DNA of 64,000 bases from a virus (taxonomy: Duplodnaviria; Heunggongvirae; Uroviricota; Caudoviricetes), in the IMG/VR virus record IMGVR_UViG_3300006794_000002; one strand, written 5' to 3'. The position numbers and the translations under genes were made by a program. Under the pieces are notes generated by a model. The model did no database searches and was not told where the DNA came from. It was given only the letters and a program-made list of their open reading frames with translations. The first letter of the stretch is position 1, and every line of letters starts with the position of its first letter. This document shows positions 30,893 through 33,095 of this stretch, one piece after another.

Positions 30893-30979
30893 TTACGCCT
30901 GAGGCGGCGTAGGTGTTGGTCTAGGTGACGGACTTGGCGGTGTCGGCTTAGGTGCCGGTCGCGTTGTAGTCGTTGTCAT
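30893..30979 (-). CDS. small ORF inside the tRNA array: MTTTTTRPAPKPTPPSPSPRPTPTPPQA (28 aa)
   Basis: ATG preceded by GGGAGGtaagcg, a 6-nt SD. Sits in a 220-nt tRNA-free gap. Confidence 0.4.
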   Translation of the reverse strand: MTTTTTRPAPKPTPPSPSPRPTPTPPQA

Positions 30980-31034
30980 CGCTTACCTCCCTTTGATCCA
31001 ATCAAATGGCTTTAAGCCCCTTCTCAACCTCATT

Positions 31035-31109
31035 TGGTACTGCGACGGAGAGTTGAACTCCGACCTCGGACTTGGCAAGCCCGCGTCATAGCCGTTAGAC
31101 GACCACAGT
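31035..31109 (-). tRNA. tRNA-Gly (anticodon GCC)
   Basis: Acceptor actgcga/ccacagt. Anticodon arm cgggc-TTGCCAA-gtccg. Confidence 0.6.
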
Positions 31110-31110
31110 A

Positions 31111-31184
31111 TGGAGCCAATGTAGAGAATCGAACTCTAACCGGGACTTTACGAAAGTCCTGTCCTGCCGTTAGACGACAAAGGC
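31111..31184 (-). tRNA. tRNA-Thr (anticodon CGT), two acceptor mismatches
   Basis: T-arm tagag-aatcgaa-ctcta. Loop TTCGTAA. Two U·U mismatches in the acceptor stem, so possibly a pseudo-tRNA. Confidence 0.45.
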
Positions 31185-31244
31185 TTGTAGTGGTGTACGG
31201 TGTCCCACACTATCCGCCCCGCGTAAGGGCTATAGTCGCGCATT

Positions 31245-31319
31245 TGGTACCCGTTGAAGGATTTGAACCTACAACTTACTGCATGTAAAACAGTCACTCT
31301 ACCGTTGAGTTAAACGGGC
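31245..31319 (-). tRNA. tRNA-Val (anticodon TAC)
   Basis: Loop TTTACAT. Acceptor acccgtt/aacgggc. Confidence 0.55.
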
Positions 31320-31320
31320 T

Positions 31321-31397
31321 TGGTCCGACCTACGAGATTCGAACTCGTATCTCCCTGCTTGAAAGGCAAGTTTCCTAGTCCCTTAGAAGAAGATCGG
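31321..31397 (-). tRNA. tRNA-Glu (anticodon TTC)
   Basis: T-arm acgag-attcgaa-ctcgt. Loop CTTTCAA. Confidence 0.55.
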
Positions 31398-31471
31398 TTG
31401 GTGCAGTCTTTCCCGCTGTCCACGAGCGGTCGGGAGTGATGCATCACCCTTGATCCGAGAACTCGGTTATT

Positions 31472-31546
31472 TGGTAGGCCACGTCAGATTCGAACTGACG
31501 ACTTCTTGCATGTCGAGCAAGCGTTCTGCCACTGAACTAGCAGCCT
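31472..31546 (-). tRNA. tRNA-Val (anticodon GAC), C at position 33
   Basis: T-arm gtcag-attcgaa-ctgac. Anticodon stem cttgc/gcaag with loop TCGACAT. Confidence 0.45.
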
Positions 31547-31587
31547 ATGAACAGGTATAACCGCTCGTAAGCGTCCCTGTTCTCATT

Positions 31588-31671
31588 TGGTACTCCTGAC
31601 AAGATTCGAACTTGTATGCTGTGAGGCACTAGATTTTGAGGCTAGCGTGTCTGCCGTTCCACCACAAGAGC
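31588..31671 (-). tRNA. tRNA-Leu (anticodon CAA), type II
   Basis: 84 nt with a 13-nt variable arm. Loop CTCAAAA. Confidence 0.5.
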
Positions 31672-31782
31672 ATTGTGCTTCATCCGACTTACGTTTCGGA
31701 GCGGAAGCGTGTTCACCATGAAGTCGTGAGTCAACTTCTGCCAACTGTTCCGGCTTATCTCACACACCCGGAACTCATTTAA

Positions 31783-31854
31783 TTAGAAGAGGCCACAAGC
31801 CTTCATTGCAAGTACTACGATCACAATCACGATCACTAGTCCAAGAATTCCCAT
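31783..31854 (-). CDS. small hydrophobic ORF inside the tRNA array: MGILGLVIVIVIVVLAMKACGLF (23 aa)
   Basis: GGAGGAtacaATG start. Sits in a 195-nt tRNA-free gap. Predicted single TM helix. Confidence 0.4.
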   Translation of the reverse strand: MGILGLVIVIVIVVLAMKACGLF

Positions 31855-31869
31855 TGTATCCTCCGTATT

Positions 31870-31945
31870 TGGTACCGCATACAGGATTCGAACCCGCAAT
31901 CTTCAGTCTGAGAAACTGACGCCTTAACCGTTTGGCTAATGCGGC
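31870..31945 (-). tRNA. tRNA-Glu (anticodon CTC)
   Basis: Anticodon stem tcagt/actga with loop TTCTCAG. Confidence 0.5.
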
Positions 31946-31946
31946 T

Positions 31947-32021
31947 TGGTGAGTCGTGAAGGACTTGAACCTTCAACTGTTGGTTTAAAAGACCACTACT
32001 CTGCCGTTGAGTTAACGACCC
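31947..32021 (-). tRNA. tRNA-Lys (anticodon TTT)
   Basis: T-arm gaagg-acttgaa-ccttc. Loop CTTTTAA. Confidence 0.5.
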
Positions 32022-32024
32022 ATT

Positions 32025-32100
32025 TGGTGCCAACCCTCAGAATCGAACTGAGATGGTCGCGTTTTCAGCGCGATGCAATGACCTACTTTGCTAGGATGGC
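32025..32100 (-). tRNA. tRNA-Phe (anticodon GAA)
   Basis: Anticodon stem tcgcg/cgcga with loop CTGAAAA. Confidence 0.55.
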
Positions 32101-32143
32101 TTGTCAGTCGGTTCCATTAATGTCTACCGAAATCAACCCTATA

Positions 32144-32231
32144 TGGCAGAAGGTAAGGGATTCGAACCCTTGGGGGCTTGCACCCCACCAGTTTAGCAAA
32201 CTAGCGCAATAGGCCGCTATGCGAACCTTCT
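32144..32231 (-). tRNA. tRNA-Ser (anticodon GCT), type II
   Basis: 88 nt. Perfect acceptor agaaggt/accttct. Variable-arm hairpin tgggg-gcttgca-cccca. Loop TTGCTAA. Confidence 0.6.
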
Positions 32232-32232
32232 A

Positions 32233-32320
32233 TGGCGGAGAGTGAGTGGATTCGAACCCCCACAACCTTTTACAGTCATCACCGTTTTCAAGACGGATAA
32301 GCGCACCAGTGCGACTCTCC
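32233..32320 (-). tRNA. tRNA-Ser (anticodon TGA), type II
   Basis: 88 nt. Perfect acceptor ggagagt/actctcc. Loop CTTGAAA. The T-arm is slightly irregular. Confidence 0.5.
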
Positions 32321-32367
32321 TAGGTCGGTTCCGTTGCTATGAAGCACACGGTTTCCTTAACCCTATC

Positions 32368-32445
32368 TGGCGCAACGTACGAGGATCGAACTCGCCTTAT
32401 TCCTGTTAGACAGACAGGTGGTTTCAGCCAGAAACCTAACGATGC
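32368..32445 (-). tRNA. tRNA-Asp (anticodon GTC)
   Basis: Anticodon stem cctgt/acagg with loop CTGTCTA. 6-nt variable region. Confidence 0.45.
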
Positions 32446-32446
32446 T

Positions 32447-32523
32447 TGGTACCTCTCCTGAGATTCGAACTCAGACTGTAGCGTGTTTAAGACGCTGCTC
32501 TCTTCCGATTGGAGTAGAAAGGC
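32447..32523 (-). tRNA. tRNA with anticodon TAA (Leu UUA decoder) but class I (short variable arm) architecture
   Basis: Perfect anticodon stem agcgt/acgct with loop CTTAAAC. 77 nt with no long variable arm. Confidence 0.45.
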
Positions 32524-32524
32524 T

Positions 32525-32599
32525 TGGCGAGTCCTGAGAGGATCGAACTCTCGACTAGTGGTTTAAGGGACCACCGTTCTACCGCTGAACTAAAGACCC
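32525..32599 (-). tRNA. tRNA-Lys (anticodon CTT), C at position 33
   Basis: Acceptor gagtcct/aagaccc pairs fully. Loop CCCTTAA. Confidence 0.45.
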
Positions 32600-32657
32600 A
32601 TATGAGGGTTTTCGCAGTCGCCAGTAAACTGGATGCGTGGTGCCCACAACACTGATT

Positions 32658-32742
32658 TGGTCTTTCCCACGAGAGTCGAACTCGTACCCCTTTCAGGACT
32701 GGTTTCTAAGACCAGAGCGTATGCCAATTCCGCCAGAGAAAG
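32658..32742 (-). tRNA. tRNA-Leu (anticodon TAG), type II
   Basis: 85 nt. Anticodon stem ctggt/accag with loop CTTAGAA. Long variable arm. Confidence 0.55.
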
Positions 32743-32744
32743 TT

Positions 32745-32821
32745 TGGAGCGCCGTACAGGAATCGAACCCGCACATTCTGGTTGGAAGCCAGATATGCTA
32801 ACCGTTGAACATCAACGACGC
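32745..32821 (-). tRNA. tRNA-Gly (anticodon TCC)
   Basis: Anticodon stem tctgg/ccaga with loop CTTCCAA. Acceptor fully paired. Confidence 0.6.
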
Positions 32822-32858
32822 TTGTATGACAATTATATCAGGCTTGTCAAGCCCTATG

Positions 32859-32934
32859 TGGCTCCCTCGGTCAGAATCGAACTGACGTTTAGTTGTTTAG
32901 GAAACAACCGCGTTATCCGCTACGCTACGAAGGC
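32859..32934 (-). tRNA. tRNA-Arg (anticodon CCT)
   Basis: Anticodon stem gttgt/acaac with loop TTCCTAA. Confidence 0.55.
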
Positions 32935-33095
32935 TCGTTTTCGTGGTAGTACTCCGACTCCGGTGCGCCGCAGTCCAGACATTCTAGCACATTCTTTGGG
33001 TCTGGAACGAAAGCGTGGATTCTCCAAGGACAGTCAGGACCGCCATGGAAACCGCAACAACAATCACCACAACCGTAGTCGTCGTAATCTTTCAT
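32925..33095 (-). CDS. small Cys-rich ORF inside the tRNA array (56 aa: MKDYDDYGCGDCCCGFHGGPDCPWRIHAFVPDPKNVLECLDCGAPESEYYHENEPS)
   Basis: Hand-translated frame of 57 codons. GAGGttgaaATG start abuts the 3' end of the tRNA-Arg(TCT) gene (33109–33184). 7 Cys residues. Stop overlaps the 5' end of tRNA-Arg(CCT). Confidence 0.4.
   Translation of the reverse strand: MKDYDDYGCGDCCCGFHGGPDCPWRIHAFVPDPKNVLECLDCGAPESEYYHENEPS

Follow-up and report, generated by a model that had tools for sequence, protein, structure and literature searches.

Three small open reading frames between phage tRNA genes, probably translated as accessory cargo of the array, include a conserved acidic Cys-rich mini-protein

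Open reading frames (ORFs) that lie between transfer RNA (tRNA) genes are described from several phages. The tRNA clusters of T4 (segB) and T2L (trna.1 and trna.2) include homing endonucleases and ORFs of unknown function between the tRNA genes, and the presence and position of such ORFs differ between close relatives of the T-even group (PMC2330249); the map of T5 places ORFs among the tRNAs of a dispensable region (PMC11464382). The 64,000-nucleotide (nt) stretch analysed here, IMG/VR record IMGVR_UViG_3300006794_000002 (the window), represents most of the genome, about 64-78 kb, of an uncultivated phage of the Caudoviricetes, and its tRNA array holds three small ORFs on the minus strand, ORF1 (30893..30979), ORF2 (31783..31854) and ORF3 (32925..33095). 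Similarly to the ORFs of T4, T2L and T5, these lie between same-strand tRNAs and have no promoter or terminator of their own. Varying presence is also shared, as homologs of ORF3 occupy different slots in the window and in two metagenomic loci (L005 and L006), and the other protein genes of the L006 array are absent from the window. The L006 array likewise holds HNH and PDDEXK_5 genes. By contrast, the ORFs of the window are far smaller (23-56 amino acids, aa), and the stop codon of ORF3 lies in the next tRNA. No similarity to the ORFs of T4, T2L or T5 was detected by tblastn and blastn against 50,697 phage records or with PHROG. The kind of feature is already known, as a positional class and not as a homology family, whereas the protein family is new and its fit between tRNAs is unusually tight.

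In the tyrT-tpr and thrU-tyrU-glyT-thrT-tufB operons of Escherichia coli, small proteins are co-transcribed with tRNAs. The tyrT-tpr and thrU-tufB transcripts resemble the arrangement proposed here in that one primary transcript carries tRNAs and a translated ORF, but their ORFs are distal to the tRNAs and not wedged between two, and we know of no stop codon that overlaps a tRNA in those operons. The preferred reading of the window, with a probability of roughly 0.68, is that the phage has a plastic tRNA region in which the three ORFs are carried as accessory cargo and translated from the pre-tRNA polycistron.

The three ORFs were reported by a first-pass annotation of the sequence, and their coordinates, peptides and Shine-Dalgarno (SD)-like sequences are all present as it described them. 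An SD match was defined as at least 5 nt of identity to AGGAGGT, placed 3-11 nt upstream of the ATG, and was sought for all ATG-initiated ORFs of at least 20 aa that start in the gaps of the array on the tRNA strand. Eleven such ORFs occur, and an SD match precedes exactly the three reported ORFs and none of the other eight. Dinucleotide shuffles of the gaps (2000 trials) give a mean of 0.25 SD-led ORFs, with P(≥3)=0.002 and P(≥1)=0.22, and the antisense strand of the same gaps has none. Since three SD-led ORFs are found where 0.25 are expected, the three ORFs are non-random as a set; one of them could still be a product of chance. For comparison, an SD match of at least 5 nt precedes 4 of the 22 called phage genes and one of at least 4 nt precedes 14 of them. 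When conditioned on the amino acid sequence, the synonymous codon choice of all three ORFs matches that of the phage genes, the observed likelihood being reached by 1% (ORF1), 10% (ORF2) and 0.4% (ORF3) of uniform synonymous draws. This synonymous-only test was relied on in place of an earlier overall codon score, in which off-frame controls with stop codons overstated the separation from non-coding sequence. Paralogues of the three ORFs were not found elsewhere in the window.

A competing explanation is that all three are chance ORFs in untranslated spacers, such as processing trailers or decayed tRNAs. The ORFs are short, none was called by the gene caller of the source contig, chance alone would put about eight ATG-initiated ORFs of at least 20 aa in the gaps, and at least one gap of the array (30587-30662) is a decayed tRNA that aligns with a tRNA-Phe of contig L017. 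The excess of SD-led ORFs nonetheless speaks against chance, as does the lack of tRNA-like remnants in the three ORF gaps (Rfam, E-value mode) and, above all for ORF3, a protein that is conserved in three lineages with its third codon positions scrambled. Chance is thus hardly credible for the set. Taken singly, it is a viable reading of ORF1, at roughly even odds, and a weak one of ORF2, and it is not viable for ORF3.

ORF3 encodes 56 aa with seven Cys and three His residues and with 12 acidic (D+E) versus 3 basic (K+R) residues; it includes a conserved core, GCGDCCCGFHGGPDCPW, and a second motif, CxxCGxPxxExxH. The gene is wedged between two tRNAs. Its SD-like sequence, GAGGT (33100..33104, minus strand), lies 4 nt before the ATG and 4 nt past the 3' end (33109) of tRNA-Arg(TCT), which is directly upstream (33109..33184, minus strand; ARAGORN and Rfam). 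The stop codon, TAG (32927-32925, minus strand), is 10 nt inside tRNA-Arg(CCT) (32859..32934, minus strand; 53.7 bits in Rfam), of which the first 10 nt, counted from the 5' end at 32934, double as the final three codons of ORF3 plus its stop. The layout given by the first-pass annotation, with seven Cys, an SD site next to tRNA-Arg(TCT) and a stop within the 5' end of tRNA-Arg(CCT), was therefore borne out.

Among 1.84 billion cluster representatives, searched exhaustively with HMMER, ORF3 has two small homologs. P0123 (64 aa) is 56% identical over ORF3 residues 3-52, with an expect value (E) of 3.5e-11, and P0125 (45 aa) has an E of 1.7e-5. Two weaker matches were set aside as uninformative, P0124 with WD40 repeats and P0126 with three copies of LDCGxPxxExYH (E 9.5e-4). 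P0123 is encoded on L005, a 1-kb NCBI metagenome contig, right after tRNA-Ser(GCT) and tRNA-Phe(GAA). Five JGI contigs (L006-L010), near-identical to one another, encode P0125; its gene is embedded in an array of 38 tRNAs that is flanked by ThyX and terminase. The L006 terminase is 55% identical to that of the window, and the tRNA order of the two arrays is nearly the same. The slot of the Cys-rich gene differs between the lineages. In the window it lies between Arg(TCT) and Arg(CCT), which are 3 nt apart in L006; in L006 it lies between Lys(TTT) and Glu(CTC), which are 1 nt apart in the window; and in L005 it follows the Ser(GCT)-Phe(GAA) pair.

The three members have in common a core of 17 residues, GCG[DG]CCCG[FV]HGGPDCPW. 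Over a 21-codon core, the pairwise identities at codon positions 1/2/3 are 20/19/11, 19/20/9 and 20/18/14 of 21, and the proportions of nonsynonymous (pN) and synonymous (pS) differences are 0.06-0.10 and 0.5-1.0, respectively, with synonymous sites saturated. Positions 1 and 2 are near-invariant and position 3 is scrambled; thus, selection acts on the protein and not on an RNA or DNA element. The frame conservation in relatives that the first-pass annotation had put forward as a check is accordingly found for ORF3, which is kept as a protein in the L005 and L006 lineages. ORF3 is, on this comparison, very probably a real protein-coding gene under purifying selection. The opposing view, in which the core acts as nucleic acid (for example, as an RNA motif or as a binding site for a protein), could appeal to the 80% identity that blastn finds across 66 nt of L005 and the window and to the constant position beside tRNAs. 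It is left with next to no credence by the low identity at third positions (9-14 of 21, where positions 1 and 2 have 18-20), by a frame that opens with ATG in all three lineages, by the purine-rich stretch (GAGG, GGGG) ahead of the ATG in the window and L006, by the L005 start, which overlaps the end of the upstream gene and suggests translational coupling, and by acidic flanks that keep their character and not their sequence.

Outside the core, the C-terminal CxxCGxPxxExxH motif is common to ORF3 and P0123 and is lacking from P0125, and all three members are rich in acidic residues (D+E versus K+R of 12/3, 15/5 and 15/0). By exact-protein lookup, ORF3 has never been called as a gene; a word-indexed protein search finds nothing with ORF3 and, with the family profile, only the two known members. 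The two empty searches with ORF3 itself are explained by the fact that gene callers skipped it. Searches of the 50,697 phage records with the array (megablast and blastn) and with ORF3 (tblastn) return single-tRNA matches only, and a clade-specific tRNA-Cys pattern has no match in IMG/VR. The ORF3 family is a new and rare one of very acidic Cys-rich mini-proteins, so far known solely from within or beside large tRNA arrays of three uncultivated lineages.

The invariant core, CGDCCCGFHGGPDC, includes C9-x2-C12-x4-H17-x4-C22 in all three members, which is the ligand spacing of a CCHC zinc knuckle. On account of this spacing, a metal site is the best guess; the core is most likely metal-binding, Zn being the default assumption. 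The resemblance to the CCHC knuckle of retroviral nucleocapsid type (PF00098) goes no further than the ligand spacing, as ORF3 has two more invariant Cys residues inside the knuckle and is acidic and not basic. None of the three members matches zf-CCHC (PF00098) even at E≤0.1, and sequence searches of Pfam, PHROG and the PDB with the family find nothing significant. Nucleic-acid binding of the nucleocapsid type is unlikely, and at a net charge of −9 to −15 a protein partner is more likely than a nucleic acid. Given the missing zf-CCHC match, the two extra Cys residues and the acidity, ORF3 is expected to form a mini-domain that is stabilised by metal and binds protein rather than nucleic acid.

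ORF2 (31783..31854, minus strand) encodes a peptide of 23 aa, MGILGLVIVIVIVVLAMKACGLF, composed mostly of V, I and L, with one predicted hydrophobic helix and a mean Kyte-Doolittle value of 2.69. This fits its earlier description as a micropeptide with a single transmembrane segment. The ATG follows an SD sequence, GGAGGA (31859..31864, minus strand), by 4 nt and lies 15 nt downstream of tRNA-Glu(CTC) (31870..31945, minus strand); the program-made ORF list extends the frame to a TTG at 31899, inside that tRNA. A likely homolog (MGIVGVVIVVLIVLAF…) is present at L006 5914-5994, where a 26-aa ORF encoding MGIVGVVIVVLIVLAFLAFLSPSFNF starts with ATG behind GAGGAAGAATC while still within the Cys-rich gene, with the end of which it has a 19-nt overlap, and stops 4 nt short of tRNA-Glu(CTC). 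Among 613 six-frame segments of L006, this peptide is the top match to ORF2 (score 48, the next being 33), and composition-keeping shuffles of ORF2 reach 48 in 0.1% of trials (p≈0.001). Both peptides begin MGI-G-VIV at Met1 behind an SD site. Different synonymous codons are used at five of the nine identical residues, and the first 15 codons give a pN of 0.22 and a pS of 0.62. Frame conservation is thus reasonably positive for ORF2 also, and the ORF is, as far as its sequence tells, probably a real gene. Searches beyond L006 add no member: a degenerate DNA pattern for MGI[LV]G[LV]VIV finds three chance matches in IMG/VR that lack tRNAs and SD sites, and PHROG has no match for ORF2. ORF2 was also considered as a lipoprotein signal peptide and rejected, as MKAC is a poor lipobox and a basic N-region is absent.

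Very small hydrophobic membrane peptides are known among type I toxins such as Ibs and TisB and among phage membrane micropeptides. ORF2 resembles the type I toxins in size (about 23 aa, where these are below 60 aa) and in its one predicted hydrophobic helix. It differs from them in that it is linked to a gene for a Cys-rich protein. As to an antisense RNA partner, the opposite strand of the ORF2 gap has no sigma-70-like promoter in a scan that covers this one promoter type.

Further SD-led genes interrupt the L006 array (1230-8994). They encode an HNH endonuclease, a nuclease-like protein of the PDDEXK_5 type and three membrane proteins with several helices each (79, 80 and 100 aa); two more are ORFs of 139 aa, weakly similar to sulfotransferases, and of 154 aa. 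None of these has a counterpart in the window; thus, the array cargo that the two phages share consists of the Cys-rich gene and the micropeptide alone. The 19-nt overlap in L006 suggests that the micropeptide and the Cys-rich protein act together. Because of this overlap, the ORF2-type and Cys-rich genes were probably once a translationally coupled pair, which in the window would have come to lie about 1 kb of tRNAs apart, and the membrane peptide may anchor the Cys-rich protein or act with it. A different use of the pair is imaginable, with ORF3 as the precursor of a ribosomally synthesised and post-translationally modified peptide (a Cys-rich peptide bearing thioethers or a metal cluster) and ORF2 as its export or immunity partner. 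The short Cys-rich sequence with an invariant core and variable flanks and the membrane micropeptide beside it in L006 would agree with such a system. No modifying enzyme is nearby, however: tRNAs flank the gene in the window, the neighbours in L005 and L006 have no relevant Pfam match, and the lytic module of a phage would be an unusual setting. A precursor peptide is accordingly very unlikely.

ORF1 (30893..30979, minus strand) encodes 28 aa rich in Thr and Pro, MTTTTTRPAPKPTPPSPSPRPTPTPPQA, and is a lineage-specific orphan. Its SD sequence, GGGAGGT (30985..30991, minus strand), stands 5 nt before the ATG and is the best of the gap ORFs. The five Thr codons that were noted after the start are present (ACA ACG ACT ACA ACG). 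Codon position 2 is C in 22 of the 28 codons, and position 3 is a mixture of A, G and T; selection for Thr and Pro would give such a pattern, rather than a simple DNA repeat. The frame is kept in no relative. In L006, the slot between Gly(GCC) and Met is occupied by the unrelated 139-aa ORF, and ORF1 as a remnant of that ORF was excluded by tblastx. L017, the terminase of which is 88% identical, ends 34 nt upstream of tRNA-Met, short of ORF1, and those 34 nt are unrelated to the sequence of the window; the terminase relatives L001/L002 and L011-L020 are without tRNA arrays or are too short. Two readings of ORF1 are left, a lineage-specific gene of recent origin and the single chance ORF among the three, and its translation is rated at slightly less than even odds.

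Short SD-led ORFs with a run of Thr codons after the start recall the leader peptides of the thrL type, and the first-pass annotation had likened ORF1 to an attenuator-type leader or stalling sequence. Were ORF1 a regulatory leader, ribosomes stalled at the Thr codons or in the Pro stretch would govern how the downstream tRNAs are transcribed or processed. Five consecutive Thr codons do follow the ATG behind an SD site of 6-7 nt, the best of the array, all three tRNA-Thr genes of the phage lie within 700 nt, and the PPS and PPQ motifs are potential pause sites that depend on elongation factor P. The comparison with thrL breaks down in the surroundings of the ORF, which has no alternative hairpins or terminator, does not precede genes for Thr biosynthesis or a tRNA synthetase, and is not conserved. 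A scan of the gap finds no terminator-like hairpin or U-run downstream of ORF1; the folding of the gap does not stand out from that of its shuffles (z −0.65); ORF1 is followed by tRNA-Met(CAT) and tRNA-Thr(GGT) of the same array and not by genes for Thr synthesis or charging; L006 retains neither the frame nor the gap; and the last 34 nt before tRNA-Met differ in L017. The attenuator idea was not upheld, and a leader function of any kind has only a slim chance of being correct.

A consensus scan of the array for sigma-70-type promoters and intrinsic terminators finds none beyond chance: one promoter-like and five terminator-like sites are present, at or below the shuffle expectation, and none separates the ORFs from the tRNAs. 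With the ORFs on the tRNA strand and no promoter or terminator in between, the co-transcription proposed by the first-pass annotation is the natural reading. In the proposed mechanism, the ORFs would be transcribed together with the tRNAs, between the thymidine kinase and terminase genes, and the SD sites on the nascent pre-tRNA transcript would load ribosomes. Ribonuclease P or the 3'-end processing of the flanking tRNAs would destroy the ORF3 message and leave a non-stop mRNA. As the SD site of ORF3 is 4 nt past one tRNA and its stop is 10 nt inside the next, translation would have to precede tRNA maturation or compete with it.

Several observations weigh against the reading of the three ORFs as translated cargo of the array. 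The gene caller of the source contig called none of them and instead called an antisense ORF of 42 aa (33045-33173, plus strand) over ORF3 and tRNA-Arg(TCT), which is probably an annotation artefact. ORF1 has no homolog in L005 or L006, is of low complexity and has an overall codon usage that is low, at the 2.4th percentile of real-gene windows. The homology of ORF2 is based on some 15 hydrophobic residues and a single relative lineage, and L006-L010 are identical across the cassette and offer no variation. As to ORF3, the GAGG of its SD-like sequence belongs to a spacer motif that also trails tRNAs at gaps without an ORF, and an AlphaFold model from the three-sequence alignment has a mean confidence (predicted local distance difference test, pLDDT) of 52, which supports neither a fold nor the metal site. 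The Cys-rich family is found in three lineages only, so that its association with tRNA arrays rests on n=3, and IMG/VR, JGI metagenome contigs and GTDB genomes yield no further members when scanned for its motifs.

The Cys-rich protein and the micropeptide might instead be a dedicated companion of large phage tRNA arrays and not random cargo. This idea derives from the Cys-rich gene being the only array-embedded protein gene common to phages with 55% identical terminases, and from its staying by the tRNAs despite the change of slot; it is considered unlikely. Under it, the protein could bear on tRNA biology, for instance by decoying or inhibiting, in a metal-dependent manner, a tRNA-targeting nuclease of the host or another defence sensor; alternatively, it could modulate the processing of the pre-tRNA transcript that encodes it. 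Phage tRNA arrays are tied to the evasion of tRNA-cleaving defences (PMC10264068, PMC11464382, PMC11555353). A small acidic protein that is kept in the arrays of divergent phages is a reasonable candidate for a role in this conflict.

Whether the pair is a companion or, as preferred here, accessory cargo, the locus has implications of a more general kind. Standard gene callers can miss real, selected genes in tRNA arrays, as is evident from the omission of ORF3 and the call of a probable artefact on the opposite strand. The ORF3 family has an invariant and probably metal-binding 17-residue core with no known relative. The stop codon within a tRNA provides a compact test case for the competition of translation with tRNA processing.

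The array itself (30313..34453, minus strand) sits within a long minus-strand gene block. ARAGORN predicts 33 tRNA genes, which Rfam confirms, and misses a tRNA-Ser(UGA)-like gene at 32237-32320 (minus strand; Rfam 37.3 bits versus the tRNA-Sec model, tRNA clan), which brings the total to 34. The anticodon loop of this gene is CTTGAAA and it has a CCA end; in L006, a tRNA-Ser(TGA) is likewise directly upstream of tRNA-Ser(GCT). The two syntenic arrays (34 tRNAs in the window and 38 in L006, at 1589-8798) both cover 19 amino acids, and tRNA-Tyr is not recognisable in either. Upstream of the array are genes for a ribonucleotide reductase, a TROVE/Ro60-like protein, ThyX and a thymidine kinase, the stop codon of the last being 20 nt from the first tRNA. 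On the downstream side, a putative small terminase starts 44 nt past the last tRNA and is followed by the large terminase, the portal and the capsid. The TROVE (Ro60-like) protein is encoded at 38609-40213 (minus strand; Pfam E 6.4e-19), about 4 kb upstream of the array, and Rfam identifies no Y-RNA-like family in 30000-43000. Identical copies of the thymidine kinase that adjoins the array are found on an ENA contig of 64,269 nt, a Logan contig and 78.5-kb JGI contigs. Over 20.5 and 5.4 kb, respectively, the ENA and Logan contigs match the window at 100% identity; L003 and L004, contigs with this thymidine kinase, are likewise 100% identical to it and provide no variation to use.

Sixteen gaps of at least 30 nt separate the tRNAs, totalling 1534 nt, and the three ORFs fill three of the four largest (174, 198 and 219 nt). 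The largest gap (34045-34295, minus strand; 251 nt), from tRNA-Pro to tRNA-Ala, is without an SD-led ORF. It folds better than its shuffles (z −2.0, 7/200), has GCCACCA at its end and has no Rfam match. The equivalent slot of L006 carries the HNH endonuclease gene; the gap could be a structured RNA or the remnant of an insertion of this HNH type. The decayed tRNA occupies a 76-nt gap (30587-30662, minus strand) between tRNA-Thr(GGT) and tRNA-Asn, and the gap of L006 (7796-7871) is equally long. It can be aligned both to that gap and to L017, where the slot holds an intact tRNA-Phe(GAA) (188-261); the D-arm, TAGTGTAA..AGCACG, is common to them, and the window copy has lost a recognisable T-arm.

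On L005, a 105-aa ORF downstream of the Cys-rich gene (669-986) has a motif, CSGCHDLVHHVLHH, that resembles a His-Cys box or HNH and has no Pfam match. It is followed at 979-1057 by the start of an ORF with signal-peptide and lipobox-like features, MPKRALVAVLLVVLLVVGGC, which runs off the contig.

The spacer motif mentioned for ORF3, AT[AG][AG]GGTT[GA]A, begins one base past the tRNA 3' end in five gaps. Exact matches are at 31024-31033, 32133-32142 and 32357-32366 (minus strand), with variants at about 33098-33107 and 32848-32857. The 64-kb window has three exact matches, all at these array sites, where 0.83 are expected, and L006 shows no enrichment of the motif. A processing signal and a recombination scar are possibilities for its role. 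The Asp→Ser and Ser→Phe spacers have the 3' sequence GGAACCGAC in common.

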